A stretch of DNA of 64,000 nt from Candidatus Woesearchaeota archaeon (GCA_023264635.1 JAHFLT010000001.1:35307-99306), one strand, 5' to 3'; shown: positions 5,722 to 26,561, numbered from the stretch's first letter. Numbers and translations are program-made. The notes: generated from the sequence alone by a model not told the origin.

Positions 5722-5768
5722 GCAGAGCAACAGAAAAAGTGCATTATATATAGGTTTCTGTGGTGGAG

Positions 5769-7683: not shown

Positions 7684-9990
7684 ATGAACCGCGAAAAGTG
7701 GGAAGTTTCCTTAGAAGACTTAGTCTGGATAGCAGATCCAACAGAGTTCACATTTGCAAATACAGTTGAGATACATCCACCTGTTAATCCTATTGACATT
7801 GTCAAAGGCCAACATGATGCCAAACAGACGCTTCTGTCAGCAATAAAACTTCGCCAAAATGCAATCCTTATAGGGCCTGCTGGGTGCGGCAAATCACTGC
7901 TGGCAAAAACAGTGGCTGAACAATTCTCACTGGAAAATGCGAACAAGATAAAGCTCTATGACCAATGCCTCATCTATAATTTGGAGAATGAATTTGAACC
8001 GGATGTGATTAGCCTTCCGACGCCACTCGGAAAGCAATTTGCCGAAGACTTCAGGACATTCATAAAATATATTCGTGCAGGTGCCCACTACAGGCCTACT
8101 GGCCATGGAAATCCTCAGGATACGAAAATAACGTTCCGCACACATTCATTTTTTTCCACAACTGAATATTCAGGAACGCTAAAGCAACTTTTGGAAGGTG
8201 TGGCCAAGCAGAATGGGTTGACTATAGTGCCTGATGCTGATGTACTTTTCAAACATAGTATCAGGATGCTTGATGCGCCAGTGCTTACTGATGGAAAAGA
8301 TTACTTTACGTTGCGAATCTTGTGCCCTCATTATGAATTTGACGAACCTCGCAATGGAAAATCATTTATCCTCGACAATTTAGTGCAGACCTATAAATAT
8401 TATCCTAAAGTGCTTCGCTATTTTGGTGATATGGCTCGTGAAGTTCGTGAAACTGAAGAAATGAAAGGATTATTTGACATGGAGCAGCCATTTATAAAAA
8501 AAATGCGCGAAGAGAAATACATGATTAACGTTATTGTCAATAACGCTGAGACCGTTGGAGTCCCTGTGGAATATATTGAGAATCCGAGTATACAGAACAT
8601 TATCGGAGAAGCTGGCCATGATGCATATAATCTCCGCCCAATGCATATGCGTATCAAACCAGGCAAGCTCCATCGCGGTAATGGGGGTATCGTCATTATA
8701 GATGAGCTTATCACTGTCTTGCAGGATCAATACATGCGTAACTTTTTGCTTACTGTACTTAACGACAAGCAAGGCCGGATCGGGGGTGGCGCTGGCTTGA
8801 GTGGTGGAGGGACAAGCGCTGGCGTTGAGACAAAGCCTGTTGCAGCGGATTGCATCGTCATTGGATGCGCAAATGACGATGTATTCAAGTACATGACAGA
8901 CAAGATTGCCAGACGTTTCCAGCACAAGGTGAAATTCCATACAACTATGGACAACACATTGGAAAATAGGATGGGATACGCAGAATTTATTGCTTATGAA
9001 ATCAATAAATACAATAATGACTCCTCAAATCAAGTAAAGCTTTCTCATTGTACTCCTGAAGCAGTTGCTGCTGTTGTCGAGTGGGGCGTTCGCTTTGCCC
9101 AGAATGCTGCGCATGGCAAGAAAAAGCTCACTAATGTGCTTGATCCAGTGGCATTACTTGTGAAATCAGCAGCGATGAAGGCATCACAAGAGAATGCACC
9201 ACTTGTTGAGCGTATCCATGTCCAAGCTGCTCGCGAGGAGTTGCGGCGGTTGTCGACACAGATGCAGACAGACTATCTTACTTATATTAATGAGGGTCTC
9301 ATATCCATAGAGGTGGATGGTTTCCGAGAGCGTATAGTTAACGGGCTTGTTGTTATTAAAGATAACTATGGACTTGTTGCATATGGATTTCCTACACGAT
9401 TAATAGCTACAGCATCGCAAGGCAAAGGCGGATTTCTCAGCAGTGAAAAGGAGGCCGGGCTTTCAGGAAAAATTATGCTGAAAACGCATGAAATAATTAA
9501 GACTTACTTTAATGCAACCTATGGGAAAGCATTGGCAAAAGTAAATTTATCAGTCAGTTTCGCACAGAGCTATTCATCGATAGATGGCGATAGCGCATCG
9601 ATAGCGACTGTCATCGCACTTAAAAGTGCTCTTAGTGGCATGCCTGTAGATCAAGGACTGGCTGTTACAGGTTCGATGAATGAGCTGGGAGAAATCCAGC
9701 CAATAGGCGGCGTCAATGAGAAGATAGAGGGATTCTATGCGGTTTGTAAGCAAAAAGGATTCACCAGAAAGCAAGGTGTCATCATTCCCCCGAGCAATGT
9801 TCCGGATCTAATGTTAGCAAAAGATGTTATAGATGATGTCTGCGCTGGAAACTTCCATGTGTATTCTGTCAAACATCTGGATGAAGCAGTGGAGCTTATG
9901 TTTGCCAAGCCAGCACAGGACGTTGACAGATGCATACGGAAAAAGCTTGAGGAATACTGGAGGGAAGACAGTGTCACGGGTAAACGCTGA
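7684..9990 (+). CDS. Soluble LonB-like AAA+ serine protease with about 250-aa insertion between Walker A and Walker B
   Basis: Walker A GPAGCGKS, Walker B GGIVIIDE. C-terminal Lon protease domain DGDSASIA (Ser) and GGVNEKIEG (Lys). No hydrophobic transmembrane segment in the insert, unlike canonical archaeal LonB. RBS-like AGGAAG upstream. Confidence 0.8.
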   Translation: MNREKWEVSLEDLVWIADPTEFTFANTVEIHPPVNPIDIVKGQHDAKQTLLSAIKLRQNAILIGPAGCGKSLLAKTVAEQFSLENANKIKLYDQCLIYNLENEFEPDVISLPTPLGKQFAEDFRTFIKYIRAGAHYRPTGHGNPQDTKITFRTHSFFSTTEYSGTLKQLLEGVAKQNGLTIVPDADVLFKHSIRMLDAPVLTDGKDYFTLRILCPHYEFDEPRNGKSFILDNLVQTYKYYPKVLRYFGDMAREVRETEEMKGLFDMEQPFIKKMREEKYMINVIVNNAETVGVPVEYIENPSIQNIIGEAGHDAYNLRPMHMRIKPGKLHRGNGGIVIIDELITVLQDQYMRNFLLTVLNDKQGRIGGGAGLSGGGTSAGVETKPVAADCIVIGCANDDVFKYMTDKIARRFQHKVKFHTTMDNTLENRMGYAEFIAYEINKYNNDSSNQVKLSHCTPEAVAAVVEWGVRFAQNAAHGKKKLTNVLDPVALLVKSAAMKASQENAPLVERIHVQAAREELRRLSTQMQTDYLTYINEGLISIEVDGFRERIVNGLVVIKDNYGLVAYGFPTRLIATASQGKGGFLSSEKEAGLSGKIMLKTHEIIKTYFNATYGKALAKVNLSVSFAQSYSSIDGDSASIATVIALKSALSGMPVDQGLAVTGSMNELGEIQPIGGVNEKIEGFYAVCKQKGFTRKQGVIIPPSNVPDLMLAKDVIDDVCAGNFHVYSVKHLDEAVELMFAKPAQDVDRCIRKKLEEYWREDSVTGKR

Positions 9991-10003
9991 TGAAATTGAA
10001 GGA

Positions 10004-10543
10004 ATGGAGAAGCAATCAAAATTCCATACATTCCGTTTTCTTCTGGTTGCGTTCACAGCATATTTTGCAATAAATTGGTATGTTAAGAAGAGCGATGAGC
10101 CGTATAAAGAACCAGCATCGTTGTATGGCAGTCTTGAAGAAGCTATTGCTGGCCAGCTGCCCAGATATGGTTATGCTGCGGTGAAGATAGATGATACTAT
10201 TGGACCATATGACCCAGTCATAAAGGGAAAACAGATGCTCGGCTATGTCCATGATGATGCAGATACATTGCAGCTAGATGGGAAAGATATAGGCTACATC
10301 GTTCACGGTGTTGTCTATAATGCTGCTGGTAGAAAAGTGGCAAGATTGACAACAGGAGCTGTAGGTTATGAGATTTATTCCTATGATAACAAGAAACTGG
10401 GAACACTGACAGAAAAAAAACTTTTGAATTCTTCTGGTGCTGTGCTCGGAACGCTAGGTCCAAAGGCTGCTGTCGTTATGGACAATGGAGATAACTTAAC
10501 AGGGATTATCACAGGATATGATTATTCACGGAAGAATCTGTGA
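10004..10543 (+). CDS. Membrane-anchored protein with Tyr/Gly-rich repeats, co-operonic with Lon-like protease
   Basis: ATG 13 bp after the Lon stop, in frame with listed ORF 9833..10543. N-terminal FRFLLVAFTAYFAINWY transmembrane helix. Repeated G-Y/V motifs. Stop lies inside the target duplication of MITE copy C. Confidence 0.45.
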   Translation: MEKQSKFHTFRFLLVAFTAYFAINWYVKKSDEPYKEPASLYGSLEEAIAGQLPRYGYAAVKIDDTIGPYDPVIKGKQMLGYVHDDADTLQLDGKDIGYIVHGVVYNAAGRKVARLTTGAVGYEIYSYDNKKLGTLTEKKLLNSSGAVLGTLGPKAAVVMDNGDNLTGIITGYDYSRKNL

Positions 10544-10549
10544 GAGAAG

Positions 10550-10690
10550 GCTCCATCCAAAAATTCTCGCTCTCACTCGGCTCAGCGGCTTCTCGCCTTT
10601 GCATTTCCCAGATATCATCCCTTTGTCAGCACAAAATGAGCTACTGCTAAAGCTCGACCTTAGGCTGCTGAGCGCTTTTTTGGATGGAGC
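10550..10690. mobile_element. MITE-like non-autonomous element, type II, copy C (shares termini with the IS at 26799..27981)
   Basis: 141 bp. Termini GCTCCATCCAAAAAT...TTTTTTGGATGGAGC match the IS terminal inverted repeats. Perfect 10-bp target duplication GTGAGAGAAG at 10540-10549 and 10692-10701. Confidence 0.8.
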
Positions 10691-10849
10691 CGTGAGAGAA
10701 GAAACGAATAATGGGGAGAAACAAACTTTATTCTAATAGACAGCTTACACTAAAAAAAATCCCTCCCCGTTTGGGGAGAGTTTTTTCCTCAGAACTCAAA
10801 TCGGGGGTAAGAGGAGGAACATGAAAAAAAAAAGGAAAAAAAATTCCCA

Positions 10850-11917
10850 TTATCGCACTATCTCTATGCCCAGCTCGTGGCTTATCTGTCGTGATTCATA
10901 CTGCTGGTTGCGCTTATCCATTTTGCCCAGAATCCAAGGCGATCTCACTCCAGTGATGATAGTCATCACCGTGATCTTGCCTTTCATCTCATCGACAACA
11001 CGCGCGCCCCAGATGACATTTGCATCGTCATCCATGCTCTCTGTGACAAGCTCACCTACTTTGTTGATGTCAGCCAGCGTCATATCATGGCCGCCAACAA
11101 CGTGGATGATAGCGCCTGTTGCGCCTTCGTAGCTTATGTCCAAGAGTGGGTTAGACAATGCACCCTTTACCGCTTCTTCCACTCTATTGTTGGTATCTGA
11201 CGAGCCAACACCGATAGCTGCGACTCCACCATTTGTCATTATTGCCTTAACGTCTGCATAATCCAGGTTGACTAATGAGGGGATTGCAATGGTCTCGACA
11301 ATGCCTTTTATCATTGTAGATACAAGTTCGTTTGCCACTGCAAATGCCTGTTGCACTGGCAAGTTTCCAGCAATCTGCACAAGGCGGTTATTATCAATCA
11401 CCACAACAGTATCTGATACTTGACGCAGCTGTTGTAATCCAAATTCTGCTTTATCTACACGTGCACGCTCTATTTTGAATGGCATCGTTACAGTGCCGAT
11501 GACAATAGCTCCCAAATCCTTGGCTACCTGCGCGATGACAGGTGCACTTCCTGTTCCTGTGCCACCACCCATGCCTGCACACACGAAGACCATGTCCGAG
11601 CTCTTCAATGCTTCTTTTATTTCAGATAAGCTTTCTTTTGCAGATTCCGCTCCTTTTTCTGGGAACCCACCGCAACCAAGACCTCTGGTTGTGTCCTTGC
11701 CGAGCAGGAACTTCCTGTCTGCCTCTGTGAAACTCAAATGTTGAGCATCAGTGTTGCATGCGATTATTTCAGCGCCTTTTATTCCTTTCTTGTAGAGCCA
11801 TGCGACCATATTGTTGCCAGCGCCACCGCACCCTATAACTTTAATATTCGCTTGGCCAATAAGCCCTTCGAATTCATTGTCTTGTTTTTTCATTGCATTT
11901 TCGACGATATAATCCAT
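10850..11917 (-). CDS. ftsZ: Cell division GTPase FtsZ
   Basis: 355 aa. GGGTGTG tubulin signature (GMGGGTGTGSAP). N-terminal KVIGCGGAGNN. Confidence 0.92.
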   Translation of the reverse strand: MDYIVENAMKKQDNEFEGLIGQANIKVIGCGGAGNNMVAWLYKKGIKGAEIIACNTDAQHLSFTEADRKFLLGKDTTRGLGCGGFPEKGAESAKESLSEIKEALKSSDMVFVCAGMGGGTGTGSAPVIAQVAKDLGAIVIGTVTMPFKIERARVDKAEFGLQQLRQVSDTVVVIDNNRLVQIAGNLPVQQAFAVANELVSTMIKGIVETIAIPSLVNLDYADVKAIMTNGGVAAIGVGSSDTNNRVEEAVKGALSNPLLDISYEGATGAIIHVVGGHDMTLADINKVGELVTESMDDDANVIWGARVVDEMKGKITVMTIITGVRSPWILGKMDKRNQQYESRQISHELGIEIVR

Positions 11918-12272
11918 TTTCTACCCCTCCTTTCCTCCATTTTTGTTTCGCTAAACATAACTAACATCAACATAACTAACACCATCACCCTATTCATCAT
12001 ATGGTTGAAGTTGTCAAGTTGATGTTATCACTACCAAAAGCTTTAAATATATGTTTAGCCTAATCTTTCTCTAGAAAACAGCAAGTGTCACGCCAATGAC
12101 CTTGTATGCCTAACACCAATGTCAAATCAAGTTTTCCGCCAAGAGACTTGATTTTTTCTCAATTTTTTATGACTTCTTAAAGTAGAAAGTAATATTTAAA
12201 TATATCTGTGATAGGATATATAACATCTTGTTATTGAAAATAATTATAAAGGATTAATTTTTCCTCGATGAA

Positions 12273-13037
12273 ATGTTATGCTTAATCGGAATTGGATTAC
12301 GCGATGCGAACGATATCACGCTCAAAGGACTTGAGCACATAAAGAAAGCTGATGTCATCTACCTTGAAGGCTATACGTCGCTGATGCAATGCTCTGTAGA
12401 TGATTTGTCCACAGTATATGGAAAAAAGGTTACTCCATTGGGAAGACCAGAGATAGAAAGCAGCTTTATCCTCGATGAAGCGGAGAAAAAAAAAGTTGCC
12501 CTTCTCATCATTGGGGATCCATTTGCAGCTACCACGCACAGTTCCCTCGTCATGGAAGCGCGTGACCGTGGCATTTTTGTCGAGATTGTGCATAATGCAT
12601 CCATTCTTTCTGCCGTTGGAGAGACTGGGCTTTCGTTGTACAAATTTGGACGTGTTATTTCTCTCCTCTTTGGGGCATTGCCGGAATCAGTATATGATGC
12701 CCTATGTGCTAATCAAAAATGCGGTCTGCATACATTATGCTTGCTCGACATAAAAGTGGATGAGAACCGGTTCATGACGGTAAATGAAGGCATCCGGGCA
12801 TTGTTAGCATTAGAAGAAAAATGCAAAAAAAACCTTCTTTCATCAGTAATGCTCGCACTTGGTATTGCTCGTCTCGGTGGCAATGGCCAAGTCATAAAGG
12901 CAGGCACGTTTACAGAGTTGGAAAAAGTAGACTTTGGTCCTCCACCTCATTGTATTATTATTCCTGCATCAGAGAGACACTTTATAGAGGAGGGATGGAT
13001 TAGTCATTGGAGAAAGTATACTAGCGGTAGTAATTGA
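12273..13037 (+). CDS. dph5: Diphthine synthase (tetrapyrrole-methylase-fold methyltransferase)
   Basis: 254 aa. MLCLIGIGLRD...YLEGYTS N-terminus characteristic of Dph5. Confidence 0.8.
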   Translation: MLCLIGIGLRDANDITLKGLEHIKKADVIYLEGYTSLMQCSVDDLSTVYGKKVTPLGRPEIESSFILDEAEKKKVALLIIGDPFAATTHSSLVMEARDRGIFVEIVHNASILSAVGETGLSLYKFGRVISLLFGALPESVYDALCANQKCGLHTLCLLDIKVDENRFMTVNEGIRALLALEEKCKKNLLSSVMLALGIARLGGNGQVIKAGTFTELEKVDFGPPPHCIIIPASERHFIEEGWISHWRKYTSGSN

Positions 13038-13717
13038 TAGATATCACTTTCCGCTATTCTATTTGAAGGAACAAACAATTGGGATTATAGTAAATCCACT
13101 CCATCATGAAACTAATTCAGTGGATTTGCTAGATAACAAGTTAATTATTAGACAGTTCCAATAATTCATGAACTTGCTATAATTACTTTGTTTCTTTGTT
13201 ATAATCATTCTTGCAAAATTTTCATGTACTTTTGTTTACATGTTTGCAGTTCTCTGTTTTTTTCTCTCTCCCAGCTACGTTTTATAAAGGGATGAATAAG
13301 GATGCACAAACCATAACCAATGCCAAAACCAAGAAAACCTCCTGTGATTACTCCTCACAAAAAAAGAAGGCTGTTGTACTGAGAAGGTGCTATTCCTGCA
13401 CCAGGAAGTCCACCAAGTAAAGCCCCAACAAGCGAAAATGGTCTTGCACAAAAAACATAATTGATGTCATATTCTCAATAGTTTATTTTTATTTTTTCAT
13501 ATTCAATTAGATACTCACCATATTGTTGTTTTTTTTTTGGAAGAGATAGTGTTATCCCATGTGCTTGTAGTTGCTTTTTCTCTTAAAACTGTTTTTTCTA
13601 AAGGGGATTTTTTGTGCTGTACTCTTCATAGTATTTTACGATCACATCAAGTGATTCACGTTGGTTCATTTTTTCTTCAAAGGGATGTTTCATTTTTAAT
13701 TTTTGCTTATTTTTTAC

Positions 13718-14482
13718 TTATATAAAGTACCTAACTGCATTTGTGAAAATCTGTAAACCGGCACCTTCTTTTGGCAGGTTTTTAGTCCACAGAGGATGTT
13801 GGTATGTGTCAATGAATCGCTCAGGATGTGGCATTAATCCGAAGATTCTGCCACTCTCATCACAAATTCCGGCAATATCATCTAATGAGCCATTAGGATT
13901 ATAAGGAAATTCTCCTTTGGCAGAAAATCCATTCTTCGCATAGCGCAGGGCAATCATATCACGCTTAGTCAATTCGTTCACTGTATTATCTGACGCATAG
14001 AATCTTCCTTCTCCGTGTGCAATCGGTAACTCTATCTTGTCTATTCCCTGCGTAAAAATGCACTTTGATGAGCCAATGAGCTCAACCCATCTACATTCAT
14101 ACCGTGCACTTGTGTTGTGCGTCAATGCCACAGTCCGTGCGCCGTATTCCCCAGTAATGGCAGGAAGCAGCCCGAGGTTAGTCATCACCTGAAATCCGTT
14201 ACATATACCTATGATTAATTTGCCTACAGCAATGAACTGCAACAGTTCCTCCCACATAGTGTTGCGCAATCTGTTCGCCAAAGCCTTGCCTGATCCAGTA
14301 TCGTCTCCATAAGAAAATCCTCCGGGAAATGCTAAGAGGTGATATGTCTCTAATTTTTTTTTATTCTCGATTAATTCGGTGATATGCATCTGTTCTGTCA
14401 GAGCTCCAGCTCGTTCGAAGGCATATTTGGTCTCTTCATTGCAATTGATTCCATACCCAGTTAGCACAAGTGCTTTTACCAT
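13718..14482 (-). CDS. purQ: Phosphoribosylformylglycinamidine synthase, glutamine amidotransferase subunit
   Basis: 254 aa. Class I glutamine amidotransferase (ICNGFQ Cys, HPER His region). Overlaps purL stop. Confidence 0.85.
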   Translation of the reverse strand: MVKALVLTGYGINCNEETKYAFERAGALTEQMHITELIENKKKLETYHLLAFPGGFSYGDDTGSGKALANRLRNTMWEELLQFIAVGKLIIGICNGFQVMTNLGLLPAITGEYGARTVALTHNTSARYECRWVELIGSSKCIFTQGIDKIELPIAHGEGRFYASDNTVNELTKRDMIALRYAKNGFSAKGEFPYNPNGSLDDIAGICDESGRIFGLMPHPERFIDTYQHPLWTKNLPKEGAGLQIFTNAVRYFI

Positions 14483-17343
14483 TTATTAAACCTAACCTTA
14501 TACACCCTTTCAAGTGCAGTTAGAGTGGTATTAATGACAAGCTTGCTTCCATCGCGTACAAAAAACATATGTGGCGTAACGTACCCTATACGGAAATACA
14601 TACACTCGAGCATTTTCTCAAAGGCGCCTGCATTCTTCTGTGAAACACTTACAATGAATCGCCCGGGTGATTCTGAGAATAGTGTTTTATACTGTGGCAA
14701 ATGTAGTTGGTTTATGTCACCATGAACGCCTTTTCTCCCAGCGATTGCACATTTTGCCAGACTTACAGCCAGCCCACCTAATCCAACAGCGTGTGCACTT
14801 TCAACCAGACCTTGCTCGATTGCTTTCTCGAGTTTGCCATAAAGTTGAATTGTTTCATCTAACCTGACCATTGGAACATTCTTGCCGACAACATCATTCA
14901 TTGCATAATACTCTGAGCCGCCCAATTCATCTCTTGTTTTTCCGATAATATAAAGGACATCTCCTGATTTTTTGAAATCCATACTGATACATTTTCTGAT
15001 ATCAGAAATAATACCGATAGAGGAAATAAGTATCGTCGGTGGGATAGAAAGGGATATTTTATTTTCATATTCATCAAATCCTCTGAAATCATTATGCATG
15101 CTGTCCTTTCCGGATATGAAGGGGGTACCATACATTACAGCAGTATTATAGCATGCTTCAGCTGCACGTTTCAGCTGGCCCAATCTTTTTGGATCGTTAG
15201 GACTGCACCAGCAGAAATTGTCCAGCAGTGCTGTCTGTTCCAGCTTTCCACCAACAGCAATTATATTTCTAACTGCATAGTCAATGGCACAGGCAGCCAT
15301 CCAGTATGCGTCTATATCCCCATACGATGGAAAAATGCCCTGTGATAATGCAATTCCTCGATAGGAATCTAATAACGGCCTCGCCACAGTAGCATCCGCA
15401 TTAACCCTTCCTTTTCCAATGAGTGGTTTTAGCACAGAGCCACCCTGAACTTCATGATCATACTGCCGAGAGATAAATTCACGGCTGCATATGTTTGCAC
15501 GGTTGAGCATTTCTGTTAACACGTGTGTCAAATCTTTCGGCACTTTCAGTATGGGCTCTCTGTGCCTCGCAAGTTCATCGGTAGAAGCTACTTTCTTTTT
15601 GGGTAATCCATTGTGCAGAAAATCTAGTTCGAGGTCCATCACTGTTTCATTGCCATACTTTACAGTACATTTTCCACTGTGTGTAAATTTCCCGATAGTC
15701 GTTGCCTCTACTCCGTGCTTTTTCATTACACTAAGAAATGCCTCTACTCTCTCAGGAGGCACAGCAATTGTCATACGTTCCTGCGATTCACTCACCCAGA
15801 GCTGCCATGGCGCCATGCCAGCATATTTTGTCGGTATATTTTCCAATTGGACAAAGCAGCCATTGCTCTCTTTTGCCATCTCTGCAATAGAGCAGGACAA
15901 TCCACCAGCACCGTTATCTGTAATGCTATTATAAAGTCCTCTTGCTTCAAGCAAGGCGTCTGCCATTTTTTTCTGGGTGATTGGGTCTCCTATTTGCACT
16001 GCAGTAGCTGGACTTCCTGCATTGAGCGCTTCTGAAGAGAATGTTGCACCGTGTACCCCATCCACTCCAACTTTACCCCCTATCATCAAGATGTAGTCTT
16101 CGGGCAGTGCCTTTTTTTCGTGACTTGGTTTTCCTGCAACAGTTCGCGGGATGAACCCCACAGTACCTACAAAAACCAATGGTTTTGCACGATACTGTTC
16201 ATTAAAAAGCATAAATCCCTGTGTAGTGGGAATGCCTGAGCAGTTTCCACCAACACGCACTCCTTCAATAACTCCTTCCATGATTCTTTTTGGTGATAGC
16301 ATCAGAACATTTTTTGTGCGATAAAGTTTTTTATTATCTTCGGGTATTCCGAAACAGAAGCCGTATGTGTTGATAATGGGTTTTGCGCCAGTTCCAAAGC
16401 CAAGACAATCACGATTAACACCAAGGATACCTGTGATAGCACCTCCGAAGGGATCCAATGCAGACGGACTGTTATGGGTCTCTACTTTATGTGTAACAAG
16501 ATACTTGTCATCAAAAACTAGTGCGCCGGAATTGTCAACGAAAACAGATGGACAAGTCACATGTCCCCACTTCATGTTCAGTATCCTTTCTGTTGCTCCT
16601 TGGATATACGTCTTGAACAATCCTTCTCTATTATTCATTTGTGCTGCAAAAATTCGGTGCTTACAGTGCTCAGACCATGTTTGTGCAAGGGATTCAAGTT
16701 CAACATCAGTTGGCTTCCTTCCTTTGTTTCGGAAATAGTTTTGAATGGCTTTCATCGCATCTCCATCAAGAGCAAGAGGACCATTGATTCCCTTATTGCC
16801 TATTGCAACGAGTGCAGCATCGCTCACGTCCAAGTCAATGAGTGCTGCTGCAGTGGATTGTAATGGCATTTGTAAAGATACTTTTGGGATAGTAATGCAC
16901 AACGGCTCGTTTCTCTTCCTTATCGTAATTTTGTTAATAAGCGGATTGGCGAATTGGGTAGCTATTTTTTGGATCTCACTATATGTTCCACCAACAAGAT
17001 ACATTGTTTGTGAAGAATAGACATTCACTGGCATGCACAGGCAATCCTCAATTGTTTGGTGTGCAGTGGCGCCAATATTATCAGTAACTCCGGGCAAGAA
17101 TCCAACATCTACAACCCATTCAAAGTTGTGTATGCAGTAGTCATCAATGCTATACTTTTCTATAACCGGATTAATGAACAGCAAAGCACATTGCTCGAGT
17201 TGTTCCTTGAAGAGATTTTTATCTATTGTATATGTATCAGTCAATGCGATGATTCTGGCTTCTATGCCCAAACCAGTTATCTTTCTTTCTCTCATTGCTG
17301 CACGTGTATCTGTAATTATGGGAAAGACTTCAATACGGTGCAT
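14476..17343 (-). CDS. purL: Phosphoribosylformylglycinamidine synthase PurL with two N-terminal PurS-like domains (PurS-PurS-PurL fusion)
   Basis: Listed ORF extends to 17490, but its first 31 codons are MITE copy D, so the start is taken at the next ATG, 17343 (MHRIEVF). N-terminal about 150 aa carry two PurS-like units ending NPVIEKYSI and NPLINKITI. PurL core follows. Confidence 0.8.
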   Translation of the reverse strand: MHRIEVFPIITDTRAAMRERKITGLGIEARIIALTDTYTIDKNLFKEQLEQCALLFINPVIEKYSIDDYCIHNFEWVVDVGFLPGVTDNIGATAHQTIEDCLCMPVNVYSSQTMYLVGGTYSEIQKIATQFANPLINKITIRKRNEPLCITIPKVSLQMPLQSTAAALIDLDVSDAALVAIGNKGINGPLALDGDAMKAIQNYFRNKGRKPTDVELESLAQTWSEHCKHRIFAAQMNNREGLFKTYIQGATERILNMKWGHVTCPSVFVDNSGALVFDDKYLVTHKVETHNSPSALDPFGGAITGILGVNRDCLGFGTGAKPIINTYGFCFGIPEDNKKLYRTKNVLMLSPKRIMEGVIEGVRVGGNCSGIPTTQGFMLFNEQYRAKPLVFVGTVGFIPRTVAGKPSHEKKALPEDYILMIGGKVGVDGVHGATFSSEALNAGSPATAVQIGDPITQKKMADALLEARGLYNSITDNGAGGLSCSIAEMAKESNGCFVQLENIPTKYAGMAPWQLWVSESQERMTIAVPPERVEAFLSVMKKHGVEATTIGKFTHSGKCTVKYGNETVMDLELDFLHNGLPKKKVASTDELARHREPILKVPKDLTHVLTEMLNRANICSREFISRQYDHEVQGGSVLKPLIGKGRVNADATVARPLLDSYRGIALSQGIFPSYGDIDAYWMAACAIDYAVRNIIAVGGKLEQTALLDNFCWCSPNDPKRLGQLKRAAEACYNTAVMYGTPFISGKDSMHNDFRGFDEYENKISLSIPPTILISSIGIISDIRKCISMDFKKSGDVLYIIGKTRDELGGSEYYAMNDVVGKNVPMVRLDETIQLYGKLEKAIEQGLVESAHAVGLGGLAVSLAKCAIAGRKGVHGDINQLHLPQYKTLFSESPGRFIVSVSQKNAGAFEKMLECMYFRIGYVTPHMFFVRDGSKLVINTTLTALERVYKVRFNKW

Positions 17344-17398
17344 ACCCACCTGGGGAAGAACAACTACATAAAAATTGTGGATTTCAGAGGTAAAACAG

Positions 17399-17538
17399 GT
17401 TCCATCCAAAAAAGCGCTCAGCAGCCTAAGGTCGAGCTTTAGCAGTAGCTCATTTTGTGCTGACAAAGGGATGATATCTGGGAAATGCAAAGGCGAGAAG
17501 CCGCTGAGCCGAGTGAGAGCGAGACTTTCTACAGAGCC
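17399..17538. mobile_element. MITE-like hybrid element, copy D
   Basis: One end GGTTCCATCCAAAAAA (type II / IS-like terminus, 1 mismatch). Other end ACTTTCTACAGAGCC (type I terminus). Imperfect flanking repeat TAAAA(A)CA(A)G. Lies 55 bp upstream of purL start. Confidence 0.65.
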
Positions 17539-17636
17539 ATAAAAACAAGTAGATTTATAAATAGCACATTATTCTCTGCTCCCATAGAAGGTTTACGAAT
17601 TCTTCGTAAATACCTTCAAATTAGGTGAAAAACAAC

Positions 17637-17810
17637 ATGGGATTTGGCGGACAAGGTGGTGGCGGTTTTAGACGCAGCTTTGGTCCTCGTGAAATGCATC
17701 CAGCAACATGTGCTGCATGCGGTCAGGAGACTCAGGTGCCGTTTAAGCCATCAGGAGATAGACCAGTCTATTGCCGTGATTGCTATCAAAAGCAAAAAGC
17801 GCAACAGTAA
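17637..17810 (+). CDS. Small RGG-box / zinc-ribbon protein
   Basis: MGFGGQGGGGFRR Gly/Arg-rich N-terminus followed by CAACGQ...CRDC zinc ribbon. Listed ORF starts 17625 and an internal Met at 17637 also fits. Confidence 0.4.
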   Translation: MGFGGQGGGGFRRSFGPREMHPATCAACGQETQVPFKPSGDRPVYCRDCYQKQKAQQ

Positions 17811-17896
17811 ACGATAACGAGTCATTTTTCTCGTAATCACTGGTACATTTTTTTTTATTTTTTGTTTTTATTCTAGGTGCATATTGGTACCTATTT

Positions 17897-19657: not shown

Positions 19658-19679
19658 GATATGGCTAGAGCTACTGTGT

Positions 19680-21182
19680 TCATGCAGCATTTTTGGTATA
19701 CTTCGATGTTATTTTTATCATCCTTAGTGTATTCAGGGGATATTTCAAAAAAACCATTACGTTTTGTAGAAGTTTTATTGGATCCTGTATCATCTGCAGT
19801 ACATACAGAGCCCTGACTCTTTTGTAAAAGGTAATTGAAAGAATTTTTAGATCTTCTGGAGTAAAATGTTCTGTCCTTAAAGCGCTCATGCCAAATATTC
19901 TGCCTTTGGTGTATTCTTCATCAACGAGATATCCTTTTGCTTTTGCTAGAGCATACATTTCCGTCCCAATAAGTGGCATTGCGAAATTTACGTGTGGTTT
20001 TACAAAGTATTCTTTCATCATCTTATAGGCAAAGTTCAACGTTTCTTGTATGTTTTCCTTAGTTTCCCCAGGAAAACCAATAATGTAAAATGCACTAAGT
20101 GGAATCTTCAATTCTTTACAGTTTCTTGCAGTCTCAATTACTTTATCTAGTTTAAGCCTCTTCTTGATGACTGTATTCAGGAATTCTTCATTGCCTGATT
20201 CAATGGCAATTCTAAGATGTTTCAAACCTGTGCGTTTTGCTTTCTCAAGAAGACTAAAATTAAGAGCATCTGCACGAACGCCATTTGGTGTATCCCAGCC
20301 AAACGTGAGGTTTTTCTTCAAAACAAGATCAAGAATTTTCTCAAACCTGGGTTGATTAAGGGTCAAATTGTCATCTTCAAAATGGATAAAATCAACATCG
20401 TATTTTTTGATGAGAAGTTCTATATGGGCAACAACATATTCTGGAGAATGATATCTATACTTGTAACCCATTGTTGGGTGTATGGAACAGAATATACACT
20501 CATAAGGACAACCCCTACTTGTTATCATTGTCACTTCTTTCATAGGCTCGTAAAAAACATCATAATATCGAGATCCCCTTCCCGACCTTGCGAGTTCAAA
20601 ATATCTTTTTATATCAACAAGGTGATATGCTGGATATGGTAATGCATCCAAATTCTGTATGTATTCCGAAGGAGTAATTTTTACTTTTCCCTCGTGTATG
20701 TAAGCAACGCCTTTCAGATCACTGAATTTTATCTTCCCCTCATAGAAATCAATGATGTTCGCCAATGTAATTTCACCTTCTCCAACACAGACCATATCTA
20801 TACCGGATGAAGATACCAGGAAATCTTCAGGTTTAGCTGTAGCATGCGGTCCACCAACAATTATTTTCGCTCGAGGGTATCTAGCTTTTATGTATTCTGT
20901 GATACGAAGAGCCCGTTCCATTTGAGTAGAAAATAAATTTGTTACTCCAACGATGTCTGGTTCACACTCTTCGATTACTTTACCGATCGTATCAAATGAT
21001 GCACCAAAATGAGCTATGTTTTCAGTTTTATCGGGATAAAGCAGTGAATCAAAAATTTTAACATCGTGCCCCTTTTTCTCTAGATATGCAGCTATGCTAA
21101 GTGTTCCGAGTGGTATCCCAACCGCTGTATGGGGAAGAGAGTCCATATCCAATTGAGGTGGTCGCAATAAAAGTACTTTCAT
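19680..21182 (-). CDS. B12-binding-domain radical SAM enzyme
   Basis: 500 aa. N-terminal cobalamin-binding-like domain. CPYECIFCS CxxxCxxC radical SAM cluster motif. Confidence 0.75.
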   Translation of the reverse strand: MKVLLLRPPQLDMDSLPHTAVGIPLGTLSIAAYLEKKGHDVKIFDSLLYPDKTENIAHFGASFDTIGKVIEECEPDIVGVTNLFSTQMERALRITEYIKARYPRAKIIVGGPHATAKPEDFLVSSSGIDMVCVGEGEITLANIIDFYEGKIKFSDLKGVAYIHEGKVKITPSEYIQNLDALPYPAYHLVDIKRYFELARSGRGSRYYDVFYEPMKEVTMITSRGCPYECIFCSIHPTMGYKYRYHSPEYVVAHIELLIKKYDVDFIHFEDDNLTLNQPRFEKILDLVLKKNLTFGWDTPNGVRADALNFSLLEKAKRTGLKHLRIAIESGNEEFLNTVIKKRLKLDKVIETARNCKELKIPLSAFYIIGFPGETKENIQETLNFAYKMMKEYFVKPHVNFAMPLIGTEMYALAKAKGYLVDEEYTKGRIFGMSALRTEHFTPEDLKILSITFYKRVRALYVLQMIQDPIKLLQNVMVFLKYPLNTLRMIKITSKYTKNAA

Positions 21183-21363
21183 TTTTTCAATACAAATAAT
21201 ATATGAAGAGAAGATAAAAAGGTGTGTATATAAATTTTTTGTGATTGATGAAATCTAACGGTGAAAGTATAGCAAGCTCATGAAATATTGAACCTGTCAA
21301 ATAGTAAACTTGCTATATAGCAAATTCACAAAAATTGTTTCACTGTTTGGTGGATTGTTCTGT

Positions 21364-23946
21364 CTATTGTACCATCTTCTTTATTACTATTCTAGCTGCG
21401 AGAGACCCTAGCACAATTCCTACTACCAACACAAAAAGGATTATCCAATCACTTGTTGTCAATGCGATGAGTTTAAAATAAGTAGAGAGTGATGTGTACA
21501 AGAGCAAATATTGTAGTAAGACAGCAGCCCCGACCGCCATCAACAGCCACATATTAACAAAGAGAGGAGTAGCATACTCACGCCTAACCATGAACAAGCG
21601 CACAAACTCTCCAAGGATAATCCCCGTGAATGCCATTGTCTGCGCATGCCGAAGGCCATTTGGCAAGTCAATGACAAAGACAGCAAGCGTGCCCAAGCCA
21701 ATAATAAGTCCAACAACAATTAATTCCAGCAGCAAAGGCTTTGGCAATAATGCCTCATGGGGACTGCGTGGTGGCCGTTGCATTACACCCGGACTTGCAG
21801 GATCTACAGCTACAGCCAACGCAGGTAATCCATCCGTTACTAGATTTATCCACAGAAGCTGCACAGCTGTCACCGGCAATGGCAGCCTGGTCAAAGATGC
21901 CACAAAGACCAGTACCACCTCCCCAAAATTACATGATAAGAGAGTATCGATGAATTTTTTGATATTATCATAAATCCGTCTCCCTTCTTGCACTGCATTC
22001 ACAATTGTACTGAAGTTATCATCTGTCAGCACAATGCCAGATGCCTGCTTTGCCACTTCGGTGCCGCGCATGCCCATTGCAATCCCTATATCTGCTTTCT
22101 TAAGTGCTGGTGCATCATTCACCCCATCACCAGTCATAGCCACGATATGGCCAATAGCCTGCAGTGCACTTACAATCCTGATTTTATGGTGAGGCGTGGC
22201 ACGAGCATAAACAGTCACATGACCTGCATGTTTGCGCAATTCTTTATCAGACATTGCCTCAAGCTCTTCTCCAGAAACTGCCTCTCCCGCCATATCCAAG
22301 TCATTAGCTATAGCGGTAGCGGTTGTCTTATTATCGCCAGTTATCATAACAACTTTGATTCCCGCTTGCTTGCAGAGTGCGATAGCTTCCTTTACGCCTT
22401 CCCGCGGTGGATCCATCATCCCCTGTAACCCAACAAAGATAAGGTCATTTTCTATGATTTTGCTAGTCATTGGTTTGTAAGCAAAAGCAAGAACTCGAAG
22501 CGCATGGCTTGCCATGGTATTTTCATGCTGTACCACTTTTGCTTTTATGTTCTTTGTCAACGGCATTACCTTTCCATTCCCAACATAACGGCTACACTTC
22601 GCCAAAACAGCATCGACAGAACCCTTGGTATATGCCTCTGTCCCATGCTTCGTTTGATGAACAGTCGTCATCATGGCTCGTGTAGAAGTAAATGACACAA
22701 CATTCGTTCTCTTATAATCATGAGCAAGTTTCTTTGTTCCTAATCCTCCTTTTGTTGCGCTGACGAGCAATGCAACTTCAGTTGGATCACCAATCATTTC
22801 CCCATTTGCTATTGTCGCATCGTTGCACAAAGCTCCAATACGCAATAATAATTCAATATCTGGATGATTACCTTTCTCTGTGAAACCTGCAGCGGTAAGA
22901 TGTACGACTACATCGTCTACGGACAATTGTACAACAGTCATCTCATTCTTTGTCAGCGTTCCGGTCTTATCAGAGCATATAGCAGTACATGAGCCAAGCG
23001 CTTCCACTGCAGGCAACCTCCTAACAAGTGCTTTTTGCTGCATCATCCTAAATATGCCTGTTGCAAGTGCAATTGTGACAACAGCCGGCAACCCTTCAGG
23101 TATGGCTGCAACAGCCAGACTCAAAGATTCGAGAAATGCATCAATTACGCGCAAACCATCCAGCATTTCTGTCACAAATATGACTCCACACAGAAGCAGA
23201 ATTCCCTTGCCAAGCAGTTTCCCAAAATGCTCCAGTCGTTTCTGCAGTGGCGTCTGCTCTATTACTACTGTCTCAAGCATTTTGGATATCTTTCCCAGTT
23301 CAGTTATCAACCCCGTTGCAATCACCACGCCAGTTGCTGAGCCACGCGTCACAAGAGTCCCGGAAAATGCCATATTTTTCTGAGCAGTAACAAGCGCACC
23401 ACTGTTTACTCCTAAGGTCATTTTGCTGATGGGTGCTGACTCCCCGGTCAGCAATGCTTCACTCACTTGGAGGTCATAAACTTCAATTAGTCGCATATCT
23501 GCTGCAATGCTATCCCCTTCTGCCAATACAACAATGTCCCCAGGCACCAGCTCGAGAGAAGATATTGTATGTTTACTACCATTGCGGACAACAACTGCGC
23601 TCGGTGTCAATAACTTTTCAAGCGCTTCCAGAGAGCGTTCTGCTTTGTATTCCTGAAAGAATCCAAAAATTGCATTGAAGATAACGATAAGCAGAATCAG
23701 CAATGCGTCAAAGCGTTCTCCAACAAAAAAAGAGATTATTGCTGCACCAATGAGAATAAGCACTAGGGGGTCAGTGAATTGGTCAAGGAACAGCATCCAT
23801 GAGCTTGCCTGTTTGCGTTTGGGGAGTGCATTAGGTCCATAAGTACCTAGTCTTGATGTGGCTTCTTTTTCTGTCAAACCGTCTTTTTTTGTCTTCAAGG
23901 CAGCAAGCACCGCCTTGGGAGACATTGTGTAGTACTCCATATGCAC
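21364..23946 (-). CDS. P-type cation-transporting ATPase (Ca2+/P2-type-like)
   Basis: 860 aa. DKTGTLT phosphorylation motif. TGDGVNDAPALKKADIGIAMG hinge motif. Multiple transmembrane helices. Confidence 0.88.
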   Translation of the reverse strand: MHMEYYTMSPKAVLAALKTKKDGLTEKEATSRLGTYGPNALPKRKQASSWMLFLDQFTDPLVLILIGAAIISFFVGERFDALLILLIVIFNAIFGFFQEYKAERSLEALEKLLTPSAVVVRNGSKHTISSLELVPGDIVVLAEGDSIAADMRLIEVYDLQVSEALLTGESAPISKMTLGVNSGALVTAQKNMAFSGTLVTRGSATGVVIATGLITELGKISKMLETVVIEQTPLQKRLEHFGKLLGKGILLLCGVIFVTEMLDGLRVIDAFLESLSLAVAAIPEGLPAVVTIALATGIFRMMQQKALVRRLPAVEALGSCTAICSDKTGTLTKNEMTVVQLSVDDVVVHLTAAGFTEKGNHPDIELLLRIGALCNDATIANGEMIGDPTEVALLVSATKGGLGTKKLAHDYKRTNVVSFTSTRAMMTTVHQTKHGTEAYTKGSVDAVLAKCSRYVGNGKVMPLTKNIKAKVVQHENTMASHALRVLAFAYKPMTSKIIENDLIFVGLQGMMDPPREGVKEAIALCKQAGIKVVMITGDNKTTATAIANDLDMAGEAVSGEELEAMSDKELRKHAGHVTVYARATPHHKIRIVSALQAIGHIVAMTGDGVNDAPALKKADIGIAMGMRGTEVAKQASGIVLTDDNFSTIVNAVQEGRRIYDNIKKFIDTLLSCNFGEVVLVFVASLTRLPLPVTAVQLLWINLVTDGLPALAVAVDPASPGVMQRPPRSPHEALLPKPLLLELIVVGLIIGLGTLAVFVIDLPNGLRHAQTMAFTGIILGEFVRLFMVRREYATPLFVNMWLLMAVGAAVLLQYLLLYTSLSTYFKLIALTTSDWIILFVLVVGIVLGSLAARIVIKKMVQ

Positions 23947-24104
23947 TCTTATTCCCTACTCATTCCCATTCTCCATTATGTCTCTTCCGCTATTATATTT
24001 TCCAGGGGATAGTATTTTATCTCTTACTATGAAAACACCTATTTGAATGTTATGCCCAATATAGCATATTTTTTTAAAGCTGCAGAATAATATAATTCCC
24101 TTAT

Positions 24105-26561
24105 ATGATTCCTGTGAAGGTAATGGATTATAAGGTTCCGGTAGAAAAGTTACGTATAGAGGTCGACAAACAAGAATTCGGACTTAAAGGCCAGACGACC
24201 AGCGTACTACCAGTACCGAAAGGACTGGAAGTTGTGGTAGGTAATGAAGAAGCAATCAGCACAGTCCTCAGAGGATTAGAGGACAAAAGTCCGACAACAA
24301 ACATCATTATCACCGGAGATCCTGGCGTGGGAAAAAGCCTTTTGACGAATATACTTCTGGAAGATTATTGTAAAAAGCAGCCGAACGATCATCTGACAGA
24401 TAAAGTCGTGTTCTATAATTTCAAGCACGAGAAACAACCGATTATTGCGGAATTGCCGAAGGGGACTGCTTATCAGTTTGCAAAATCAGTAGATGATACG
24501 TTGTCGCAACTGGTAATTGAAGCAATGACTATTGGGCAGAATTACATGATAAAAAAGAACGTAAGCCAAGTCAAGTATAGGATTATGGAGAAGAAAGTTA
24601 TCGATGACCTTGAGAAGAAGTACAAAATTCCAAAGAAACCAATACTGGATAAAAATAATCAGCAGAGAGTAGACAAAAACGGTCAGCCACTCTCAGAGTA
24701 TGATCCAAAAACCCAACAGGATTGTGATAACCTTGTGCAAATGCTGCATGATTTGTCGATTGTACAATCCACCAACGATACTGCTTGCAAGAAAGAGTCA
24801 CGAACATTAACATCCCAAAAAAAGAAAGAGTTTGGCAGCTGTATGGGAAAAGCATTAAAAGAACTCCATACAGCATATGGACAGAACCTTCTCATTAAAG
24901 AGTACCTGGATGATTTCGTAATCAACGCAAAAGAGGATTTTGACCTATTTTTGGGGGAGGGACTAAGTAAAGATGCCCCACAAAATGATTACGGAATAGA
25001 AAAATACCGTGTCAATGTTGTCGTGGACCATACGCATACAATAGGCATTCCTTACGCAAAGATAGAGCGTCCTGATGAGCGAACATTACTCGGAGAAATA
25101 AAGGGAGACAACCTTAACGAGGAAAGCAAACCACCACAGTTCTGTGTGGATATAGGAAAAATGATAGAATGCGATGGAGGCATTGTTTTTCTTGATGAAA
25201 AATTCACAGGCATATTTCGGCATGGGCTGGGGCTTGAGCAGAGACTCCTGACTATTTTGGAAGAACGAAAGGCACGCGTGAGTGGAAACCAGAATTACTT
25301 ACTTCCAACACAGCAGATAGAGACTAGTGAAGTCAGCGCACAGACGAAGATTGTGGCATGCATGAACTTACCAGATTACTATATTTGCCAAGATTATTTT
25401 CCCCAGTTAATGGAGCGTTTTGCATACAAAGCGCATTTCCAGAGCAGGATGGAGAACAACGTAAAGCACAGAAAACAGGTTGTATCCTTTGTTGCCACCG
25501 AAATAAGGGCACACAACGAAAATGAAAAAATAAAGGTTCCACATTTTTCTGAAGATGGCTTAGCTGCACTGCTTGAGCATATGTCTCGTCAGGAGAATCA
25601 GCATTATTTGACAACACGACTGCGCACAATAAGACAGCTCCTTTTCTCTGCAGCAGAGCTTGCACGGCAAGAGAATAAGCCTGCTATTGAACGTCAGCAT
25701 GTGCTTGCTGCACGGGAGCTGCAAAACAAAGGATGCACATTGTATAAAATAGAGCAAGATATACTAGCAGGATTCGGCGTTGATGGGAGAGTACTACTGC
25801 TTACAACTGGTGAGAAAACCGGTCAAATAAACGGACTACTCTATTACAGCATCAACGCAGAAAACTATGCATTTGGCAGCTCGCAAAGGTACCGTTTTGT
25901 AATCAAACCAGGCTATTATGGCAGGGGATTGAAATTCACCGACATAGAGAAAGCATCTGACTTAACCGGACCAACTCATAACAAAGGAGTAGAACTGTTA
26001 AAATCATTCTACAACAACCTAACTAATGAGCTGCGTGAACGGAAGATGATTTCAGGTTTAGCACCTGGATTAGAGGTTGACATGTCAGTACCAGAAAGTT
26101 GGAGCGGGAGGGATGGACCTTCTGCGACAGCTGCACAAGCATATGCATTCTTATCTGAACTAACTGGAATCCCCATAAAGCAGGGAATTGCTGTTACTGG
26201 TGCAATGGGTCCTGATGGTGAAGTGACTCTTGTTGGAGGCTTAAATGAAAAGATAGAAGGCTGGTACAAGATTCTGGCAAAGAGAGGCCATCTTGGGAAA
26301 GAGGCTGGTGTAATGATTCCGGCTGCCAACATACTGGAGTGTAATCTTTCTGATGACTGTATCAAGGCAGTGAAGAAGGGGGAATTCTCAGTCTATTATC
26401 ACAAGGATATTAGAACTGGTGTTGAAGTAATACTGGGTAAGAGTTGGGATGACGTGCTACAGGGTATCAAGAATACGTTCGACAAGTGGGAGAAAATGCT
26501 GGAAGAAGATGAAGTGAAACGTGCTAAAAGGAAAAAGGAGATAAAAGCAGCATTACCGTAA
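24105..26561 (+). CDS. Second soluble LonB-like AAA+ serine protease paralog with about 300-aa insertion between Walker A and B
   Basis: Walker A GDPGVGKS, Walker B GGIVFLDE. Lon protease domain GRDGPSATAA and GGLNEKIEG. Insert is hydrophilic and unrelated in sequence to the first paralog insert. Confidence 0.75.
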   Translation: MIPVKVMDYKVPVEKLRIEVDKQEFGLKGQTTSVLPVPKGLEVVVGNEEAISTVLRGLEDKSPTTNIIITGDPGVGKSLLTNILLEDYCKKQPNDHLTDKVVFYNFKHEKQPIIAELPKGTAYQFAKSVDDTLSQLVIEAMTIGQNYMIKKNVSQVKYRIMEKKVIDDLEKKYKIPKKPILDKNNQQRVDKNGQPLSEYDPKTQQDCDNLVQMLHDLSIVQSTNDTACKKESRTLTSQKKKEFGSCMGKALKELHTAYGQNLLIKEYLDDFVINAKEDFDLFLGEGLSKDAPQNDYGIEKYRVNVVVDHTHTIGIPYAKIERPDERTLLGEIKGDNLNEESKPPQFCVDIGKMIECDGGIVFLDEKFTGIFRHGLGLEQRLLTILEERKARVSGNQNYLLPTQQIETSEVSAQTKIVACMNLPDYYICQDYFPQLMERFAYKAHFQSRMENNVKHRKQVVSFVATEIRAHNENEKIKVPHFSEDGLAALLEHMSRQENQHYLTTRLRTIRQLLFSAAELARQENKPAIERQHVLAARELQNKGCTLYKIEQDILAGFGVDGRVLLLTTGEKTGQINGLLYYSINAENYAFGSSQRYRFVIKPGYYGRGLKFTDIEKASDLTGPTHNKGVELLKSFYNNLTNELRERKMISGLAPGLEVDMSVPESWSGRDGPSATAAQAYAFLSELTGIPIKQGIAVTGAMGPDGEVTLVGGLNEKIEGWYKILAKRGHLGKEAGVMIPAANILECNLSDDCIKAVKKGEFSVYYHKDIRTGVEVILGKSWDDVLQGIKNTFDKWEKMLEEDEVKRAKRKKEIKAALP

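Follow-up and report, generated by a model that had tools for sequence, protein, structure and literature searches.

Can a Lon protease dispense with its membrane anchor, adopt the architecture of LonC and still keep the residues of a working motor? LonC has been regarded as the branch of the Lon family in which the motor was lost, and the question is raised by two genes, here called P1 and P2, in a stretch of 64,000 nucleotides (nt) of DNA from Candidatus Woesearchaeota archaeon (JAHFLT010000001.1, 35307-99306), which we refer to as the window and number from its first nucleotide. A first-pass annotation, made from the sequence alone, described the two genes as paralogs encoding soluble LonB-like ATPase-proteases with large insertions in place of the membrane anchor of archaeal LonB. 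It proposed Lon-family profile searches, structure prediction of the inserts, a phylogeny against LonB and LonC, and a co-occurrence analysis of the gene downstream of P1. All have now been carried out. In our reading P1 and P2 are probably soluble, ring-forming Lon proteases of the LonB/LonC lineage that have the LonC body plan and have not lost the AAA+ catalytic residues. Of the three features of this body plan, one is the lack of a membrane anchor and another is a helical-hairpin-type insertion that leaves the alpha/beta subdomain where LonB has its anchor.

Two soluble Lon proteases and their inserts

The features that define the two proteins are listed here.

7684..9990, + strand: P1, Lon protease with LonC architecture, soluble, 768 amino acids (aa), AAA+ motif set intact
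7873..7896, + strand: P1 Walker A GPAGCGKS with K70, invariant in an alignment of the 20-sequence clade
8626..8628, + strand: P1 pore-loop-1 aromatic residue Y315 in an HDAY motif, aligned with the Phe of HDPF in TonLonB
8689..8706, + strand: P1 Walker B IVIIDE, D340/E341
8872..8916, + strand: P1 sensor-1 N397 and Arg finger R410/R411
9592..9723, + strand: P1 catalytic Ser637 (GDSAS) to Lys680 (GGVNEKIE)
9745..9768, + strand: P1 LonC-specific insertion 1, CKQKGFTR, of the CX3GLX(G/E) type, after the catalytic Lys
24105..26561, + strand: P2, Lon protease with LonC architecture, soluble, 818 aa, Walker A and B kept
24315..24338, + strand: P2 Walker A GDPGVGKS with K77
25182..25199, + strand: P2 Walker B IVFLDE, D364/E365
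26121..26252, + strand: P2 catalytic Ser673 (DGPSAT, with a LonA-like Pro) to Lys716 (GGLNEKIE)

Both open reading frames (ORFs) are real and full length, and the Walker A, Walker B and Ser-Lys dyad that had been reported for them are present in each. P2 also keeps the sensor-1 residue N421 and one Arg (R438), with Leu337 at the pore-loop position. The Pfam families AAA_32 ('LonB-like AAA'), LonB_AAA-LID and Lon_C are found above their gathering thresholds in both proteins, and a weak, sub-threshold match to LonC_helical follows directly after the Walker A helix in both. To call them paralogs is to use the term loosely. End to end the proteins share 27% sequence identity, and P1 matches P2 at 232 bits, a level that P1 also reaches with hundreds of bacterial LonC-like proteins, so that the pair are no closer to each other than to those proteins. 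No other Lon was found in the window, in which phmmer with P1 gave one further weak match. A candidate third Lon at 50142..51281 (+ strand) was rejected as a MoxR-type AAA+ ATPase (AAA_3 with AAA_lid_2).

Neither P1 nor P2 has a transmembrane segment on the hydropathy scale of Kyte and Doolittle. The maximum mean over 19 residues is 1.28 for P1 and 1.13 for P2, compared with 2.2-2.9 at residues 115-165 in five canonical LonB sequences used as controls. The claim that a transmembrane helix is missing at the LonB-anchor site is thereby supported, and in the AlphaFold2 (AF2) models the insert sits exactly there. P1 has 262 aa and P2 has 279 aa separating Walker A from Walker B, and bacterial relatives of about 800 aa have approximately 290-300 aa. 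About 60 aa of this spacing are ordinary AAA+ core and the approximately 35 aa after Walker A form a beta-hairpin and helix common to LonB, LonC, P1 and P2. The insert of 250-300 aa claimed earlier therefore describes the Walker A-to-B spacing correctly and overstates the insertion proper, which comprises residues 132-280 in P1 (about 150 aa) and 122-300 in P2 (about 180 aa). The predicted structures are as follows.

8077..8523, + strand: P1 insertion domain, residues 132-280 (AF2 model), with a short ascending helix, an alpha/beta tip (148-236) and descending helices (241-260 and 269-278)
24468..24935, + strand: P2 helical hairpin extension (AF2, predicted local distance difference test (pLDDT) 84-94), with helix 122-173, a beta tip (177-199) and helices 204-258 and 262-277

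The mean pLDDT is 79 for the model of P1 and 84 for that of P2, and the P1 tip is modelled at values of approximately 60-85. Structure prediction thus gives soluble inserts of two kinds. In P2 it would be the classic long LonC helical hairpin, with antiparallel helices of 52 and 55 residues and a small beta tip. The P1 insert is predicted to be a shortened hairpin bearing a lineage-specific alpha/beta tip, and agrees with the LonC hairpin only in part. Foldseek searches with P1 and P2 return LonB and LonC structures with E values of 1e-35 to 1e-41. For P1 the values are 2e-41 with TonLonB, the LonB of Thermococcus onnurineus, and approximately 1e-36 to 1e-39 with MtaLonC, the LonC of Meiothermus taiwanensis; for P2 the top match is a full-length MtaLonC chain from electron cryo-microscopy (8k8v), with a template modelling score of 0.77 on the target. 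Profile-profile comparison with hhalign on the insert regions alone aligns P2 with LonC inserts over 114 columns at 96.5% probability and P1 with LonC inserts at 96% over 56 columns, confined to the descending helices. The inserts of P1 and P2 had been called unalignable by eye and are indeed barely alignable with each other (33% probability over 99 columns, 13% identity). The insert is also the least conserved region of P1, with a mean identity of 31% in the P1 clade as opposed to 67% for the AAA core.

Relation to LonB and LonC

LonC was defined (Liao et al. 2012, PMC3391209) by the lack of canonical AAA+ motifs, the lack of transmembrane segments and two insertions in the protease domain, namely CX3GLX(G/E), located in the loop that follows the catalytic Lys, and approximately five extra residues in helix alpha5. 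The extra element of its AAA-like module has been reviewed as a 'helical hairpin extension' that replaces the LonB membrane anchor (PMC9569914). P1 carries both protease insertions, the first of the CX3G(L/F) type, where the stretch reads ...NEKIEGFYAVCKQKGFTRKQGVIIP and the consensus in the P1 clade is CKxKGLTG, the second as five additional residues in helix alpha5. P2 has both by length; its first insertion reads LAKRGHLGKE and is missing the Cys of the CX3GL motif. LonB sequences are gapped at both sites, with a short alpha3-beta9 loop and a short helix alpha5. LonA, which is marked by a large N-terminal substrate-binding (LAN) domain and has no insertion from Walker A to Walker B, fits neither protein: P1 and P2 give no LON_substr_bdg match, and LonA models score 32-36 bits on the protease domain alone.

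Profile searches place neither protein with ordinary LonB. The top NCBIfam family is TIGR00764, the LonB equivalog, at 258.3 bits for P1 and 142.6 bits for P2 against a cut-off of 516.6. The best matches to sequences in the PDB are TonLonB and MtaLonC for both proteins, and the protease domain and C-terminus of P1 align to MtaLonC with 145 bits. P1 and P2 belong to the LonC branch and are not LonB proteins minus the anchor. The earlier 'LonB-like' frame has to be given up on account of the equivalog scores, the LonC insertions and the tree described below.

The feature that sets P1 and P2 apart from LonC, as the first-pass annotation had recognized, is that the ATPase motifs are not degenerate. 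An exhaustive phmmer search with P1 over 1.84 billion cluster representatives gave 3,222 relatives. Six of these score above 490 bits and constitute the P1 clade, two fall at 290-350 bits, and below them is a plateau of proteins of approximately 800 aa at 228-287 bits. Motifs were read in a single alignment of the 148 nearest full-length representatives of clusters at 50% identity. The Ser-Lys dyad is present in all 148. Walker A, the Walker B Asp-Glu, the sensor-1 Asn and the Arg finger occur jointly in nine, which are the P1 clade together with the metagenomic proteins P0034, P0035 and P0039, and are lost in the remaining 139. Plateau proteins typically display G(Y/F)L(I/V)(L/I)xA for hhhhDE, LIGDxx for GCANED and (K/E)LF for RRF. 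Of the best 80 loci listed from GTDB species representatives, a sample and not a census, 79 have degenerate motifs and derive from many bacterial phyla, Bathyarchaeota and Methanomicrobiales; the exception is a Pacearchaeota member of the P1 clade.

Within that clade (20 sequences, down to approximately 36% identity) Walker A, the DE pair, the sensor-1 Asn and RRF are invariant or nearly so, whilst the pore-loop position is Tyr or Phe in many members and Leu or Met in others. Since residues specific for hydrolysis are conserved across the clade, purifying selection would appear to act on catalysis and not on nucleotide binding alone. We also note four metagenomic proteins, P0033, P0034, P0035 and P0039, that stand for additional rare lineages in which the architecture of LonC is combined with an intact Walker A, Walker B, sensor-1 and Arg finger. 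Two of them are approximately 955 aa in length with larger inserts (379-439 aa from Walker A to Walker B), and P0039 has a LonA-like active site, GPSAG.

A neighbour-joining tree was calculated on 713 trimmed columns with 100 bootstraps and rooted on one LonA. It recovers the LonB clade at 100% bootstrap support and puts P1, P2, P0034, P0035, P0039 and LonC into one clade at 96%. Within the latter the degenerate LonC sequences are monophyletic at 100% and the lineages with an intact ATPase branch below them. Together with the protease insertions and the fold matches, the tree places both proteins, as far as sequences can indicate, on the LonC side of the LonB/LonC split at a point that predates the loss of the motor. 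From intact lineages below a degenerate crown it would follow that the soluble hairpin architecture is older than the loss of ATPase function.

Partner gene and genomic neighbourhood

P1 is followed by a small gene that the first-pass annotation had linked to it functionally.

9971..10543, + strand: partner gene, putative beta-flower protein with an N-terminal hydrophobic anchor, 190 aa (from GTG 9971) or 179 aa (from ATG 10004)

The product has an N-terminal hydrophobic stretch and Gly/Tyr-rich hairpin repeats. A gap of 13 bp to the P1 stop, as first described, is correct for the first ATG (10004). The probable start is GTG 9971, which overlaps the P1 stop by 20 nt and is preceded at 7 nt by a Shine-Dalgarno-like GGAGG (window 9958..9973). 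This choice of start is based on that motif and on five orthologous loci in which the Lon and partner genes overlap by 8-17 nt and a GGAG-type motif precedes the partner start. The match to the Pfam four-fold beta-flower family (PF21784), which is characterized by repeated hairpins with [DNEQ]xxG tips, is marginal in the window, at 25.2 bits where the gathering threshold is 25; the values for orthologs are 26.0 and 36.4 bits, and the ortholog in locus L001 gives no match at E <= 0.01. The beta-flower fold came to light in AlphaFold models in 2023 (Durairaj et al., PMC10584680) and has no known function.

The Lon and beta-flower pair occurs, with the partner overlapping or abutting the stop of Lon, in seven independent loci representing four different gene neighbourhoods. 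Besides the window these are, with the identity of their Lon to P1, L001 (66%), L002/L003 (58%), L089 (51%), L004 and L093 (48%) and L090 (47%). L089 was reached by a reverse search of metagenome contigs with the partner and not with Lon; it was the sole true relative among the matches listed and it lies behind a Lon of the P1 clade. The partner gene is absent from all 79 LonC-like loci. The co-occurrence analysis thus favours a functional link with P1.

The closest relatives of P1 come from metagenome-assembled genomes (MAGs) labelled Woesearchaeota, Nanoarchaeota and Pacearchaeota. In the window the neighbours of P1 and P2 are housekeeping genes, for ribosomal protein S15/S13e, FtsZ, PurL/PurQ, GatA/GatB, translin, a P-type ATPase, a radical-SAM enzyme and ProRS, and there are no defence genes among them. 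The S15 gene also adjoins the P1 orthologs in L001 and L002, and the P-type ATPase gene the P2 ortholog in L007. That orthologs keep the same flanks argues for core cellular genes. P1, in conserved synteny beside S15, appears to serve a subgroup of DPANN archaea (Woese-, Pace- and Nanoarchaeota MAGs) as their housekeeping Lon. At a further P2 relative, P0027, a Peptidase_C13 (legumain-like) gene lies directly upstream (locus L008, 1173..2081), whereas P2 itself adjoins the P-type ATPase. Upstream of S15 the window contains, at 1339..2106 (+ strand) and 5140..5817 (- strand), a match to prokaryotic RING-finger family 1, which at 25.5 bits is under the Pfam cut-off of 29.1, and a translin-family protein; the adjacency of translin and GatB is kept in L002.

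Two mobile elements, a miniature inverted-repeat transposable element (MITE) and an insertion sequence (IS), lie close to the Lon genes.

10549..10691, no strand assigned: MITE, 143 bp, perfect 15-bp terminal inverted repeats GGCTCCATCCAAAAA, target duplication GTGAGAGAAG
26799..27981, + strand: IS, 1183 bp, DDE_Tnp_1 transposase ORF at 26846..27793, 9-bp target duplication TACAGCTTT

The ends of the IS correspond to the terminal repeats of the MITE with one mismatch, and target duplications are 9-10 bp across both. By these sequences the elements are the non-autonomous and autonomous copies of one family, both intergenic, the common 15-bp terminal inverted repeat identifying the MITE as a derivative of the DDE_Tnp_1 IS family. 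The first-pass annotation had an element immediately after each Lon. The MITE and the IS do follow the two loci, although the MITE comes directly after the partner gene and not after P1. Any tie to the Lon genes has to be discarded in favour of one intergenic IS family with short target duplications; the elements are incidental and no functional link is seen. A copy of the terminal repeat with one mismatch inside the purL ORF (17398..17412) has no partner repeat and is probably due to chance.

Alternatives, mechanism and known systems

Several questions should be addressed in assessing this interpretation. Are P1 and P2 ordinary membrane-bound archaeal LonB, with transmembrane helices that are cryptic or poorly hydrophobic? 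We consider this highly improbable. The AAA+ core and lid are nearest to LonB, no family ranks above TIGR00764, the PDB sequence search is led by TonLonB and the host is archaeal. However, no 19-residue window exceeds 1.3 whereas LonB controls reach 2.2-2.9 at the expected position, and on the basis of these positive controls cryptic helices are rejected at the sequence level. In addition the inserts are modelled with good confidence as soluble, helical or alpha/beta structures, TIGR00764 scores are 258 and 143 bits as opposed to 516.6, the LonC-specific protease insertions are present and the tree sets both proteins apart from LonB. Are they functionally ordinary LonC, that is ATP-independent chaperone-like proteases with Walker motifs used only to bind nucleotide and assemble the ring? 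There is a precedent in MtaLonC, which binds nucleotide (ATPgammaS) without hydrolysis, the nucleotide driving closure of the hexamer (PMC3391209, PMC13069640). Both proteins share the LonC body plan and protease-domain synapomorphies, P2 is without an aromatic pore loop, one P2 ortholog has lost the Walker B Glu and the P1 clade lacks the lid arginines of LonB. Set against these points, the Walker B Glu, sensor-1 Asn, Arg finger and the His-Asp of the pore loop are invariant or nearly so in the P1 clade to approximately 36% identity, and the same residues are gone in 139 of the 148 nearest full-length relatives. On balance this explanation is unlikely, though it deserves to be kept in mind.

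A role in anti-phage defence or other conflict, as Lon-like effectors such as BrxL or as CARF-Lon, might be suggested by the mobile elements nearby and by PADLOC matches to mad8 (22 bits), IetA (21), BrxL (17) and CARF_LON (11). The matches are very weak and derive from the P-loop or a Lon_C fragment; P1 reaches 17.4 bits with BrxL and P2 has no BrxL match in PADLOC, and BrxL falls far under LonB and LonC in the fold search. Both genes are surrounded by housekeeping genes, with synteny kept in other MAGs. The PADLOC results and gene context lead us to reject a defence island, and a conflict role seems scarcely credible. Even less can be said for the view that the genes are artefacts of assembly or annotation, whether fragments or chimeras of one gene or a recent tandem duplicate. 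The sequence is metagenome-assembled and has two Lon-like genes within 17 kb, each near the same family of mobile element. Each ORF is complete with every domain present, the two share only 27% identity with intact housekeeping genes between them, and P1 and P2 have separate orthologs, flanked as they are here, in independent assemblies (P0002 and P0003 for P1, P0026 for P2). Such conservation of flanks rules out an assembly artefact, and the idea of fragments of one misassembled gene is rejected; what probability remains for this explanation is negligible.

Our preferred reading, of LonC-type proteases that retain the AAA+ catalytic residues, also has observations that weigh against it. Pore-loop-1 of P2 presents a non-aromatic Leu, and the P2 relative P0027 (48% identity) has Asp-Asn in Walker B (LDN). 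The LonB lid motif LTLRLRDL contains arginines that are candidates for sensor-2; the P1 clade has LTN(V/I)LDP in their place and the P2 clade retains them (LTTRLRTI). Motifs that are kept do not, as sequence features, prove ATP hydrolysis or unfolding. The tree was made by neighbour-joining with one LonA outgroup and a low diversity of LonB, and retained AAA+ residues could draw the intact lineages into a basal position; with so simple a method and such narrow sampling the topology inside the basal grade should not be over-read. With respect to the partner, the assignment to the beta-flower family is marginal, the hydrophobic segment is weak (17-residue Kyte-Doolittle mean of 1.5-1.8), which makes membrane anchoring no more than plausible, and the gene is missing beside members of the P1 clade with 46% identity or less (L092, L005/L009 and L006), which indicates that it is not obligatory for the enzyme.

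From the observed motifs and gene linkage, the predicted fold and the phylogenetic position we infer a scheme that covers ATPase activity, hexamer formation, gating by the insert and the role of the partner. P1 would be an ATP-dependent unfoldase-protease that binds and hydrolyses ATP by use of K70, D340/E341, N397 and R410/R411. Tyr315 would pull substrates into a chamber lined by the Ser637-Lys680 dyad. Six insertion domains might form a crown over the pore entrance, as the hairpins of MtaLonC do, to select or gate substrates, and the variable alpha/beta tip is likely to be where substrates or the beta-flower partner make contact. The partner, presumably co-translated with P1 in the subclade at least 47% identical to it, is most likely a membrane-localised adaptor, tether or regulator of P1 and may deliver substrates. 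P2 would belong to another lineage of this kind, a highly divergent one whose coiled-coil hairpin is long and of LonC type. It probably can still bind and hydrolyse ATP, and the non-aromatic Leu337 together with the loss of the Walker B Glu in one ortholog suggests that it may already be drifting toward the ATP-independent mode of LonC.

A more speculative extension, which we put forward tentatively and regard as doubtful, is that P1 and the partner constitute a two-component, membrane-tethered Lon. The soluble insert, on the face of the ring where the transmembrane hairpins of LonB itself emerge, would dock onto the partner, a separate single-pass membrane protein on this view, and this in turn would provide the anchor or substrate-delivery adaptor in trans. 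If true, the beta-flower fold would have gained its first assigned function, and the P1 clade would be a living intermediate from LonB to LonC, an ATP-driven LonC. The strict adjacency to Lon offers the first testable functional context for the fold.

What do P1 and P2 add to the picture of the Lon family? Here the LonC architecture still has its motor residues under conservation. The order of events suggested is that a Lon first acquired the soluble hairpin and the protease insertions of LonC, and that a single, later loss of the ATPase took place in the line of descent that went on to spread through bacteria. The proteins are a natural system in which the function of the hairpin crown can be studied in combination with an active translocase. 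In DPANN archaea genomes are tiny and proteostasis components are few, so that a Lon of this type may be their main energy-dependent protease.

Among known systems, BrxL of bacteriophage exclusion (BREX) and 'Lon-like-Ms' of Methanobrevibacter smithii (PMC4864567) are similar in being soluble, Lon-related proteins with Walker motifs from prokaryotes, including archaea. BrxL differs in that it is a weak match (17 bits in PADLOC, Foldseek rank 27 or lower) and no BREX context is present. Identity with Lon-like-Ms was rejected because that protein and its relatives occupy a separate cluster and have Tyr at the position of the catalytic Ser. The partner would resemble beta-flower proteins (PF21784/PF21785, Tubby-like clan; PMC10584680) in its repeated short beta-hairpins with Gly-containing tips, small size and putative membrane-targeting N-terminus; it differs from them, proteins of a fold with no known function, in its linkage to Lon, of which we found no description in the literature.

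With archaeal LonB (TonLonB, PDB 3k1j; TIGR00764) P1 and P2 share an archaeal origin and an active-type AAA+ module of the same subtype (AAA_32, LonB_AAA-LID) in which the Walker A Lys, Walker B Asp-Glu, sensor-1 Asn and Arg finger are present. They also share the beta-hairpin and helix before the insertion site and the lack of the LonA N-domain, and P1 in particular has the HDP(F/Y) type of pore loop and the EGDSAS type of active site. They differ by a soluble insert of 150-180 aa instead of transmembrane helices, by the LonC-type protease insertions and by a position outside the LonB clade and far under the equivalog cut-off.

The resemblance to LonC (MEROPS S16.007; MtaLonC and TTC1975 of Thermus thermophilus; PDB 4fw9, 4fwd, 8k8v) extends to solubility with no N-terminal LonA domain, to the insertion where LonB is anchored, between Walker A and Walker B, which in P2 takes the form of a long helical hairpin with a small beta tip, to the common C-terminal signature EGF(Y/F)xVCKxxGLTGxQGVIIP...G.FH(I/V)Y and to an overall size of approximately 770-820 aa. 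The hairpin of P1 is shortened and carries its own tip domain, and P1 has a conserved downstream partner gene where the 79 LonC loci have none. P2 has a LonA-like Pro before the catalytic Ser and is without the Cys of the CX3GL motif. Soluble proteins of the LonC type are common, with an architecture already known from solved structures. We found no prior description of an ATPase-intact LonC-like protein or of a DPANN Lon in the searchable literature, and the variant tip domain of P1 and its conserved beta-flower partner are new. New also is the principal difference from LonC, which is defined by degenerate AAA+ motifs and the lack of an ATPase: P1 and P2 keep the motor residues, and to judge from their sequences combine a conserved, apparently catalytic AAA+ module with the LonC architecture, so far in a few rare, mostly DPANN lineages.

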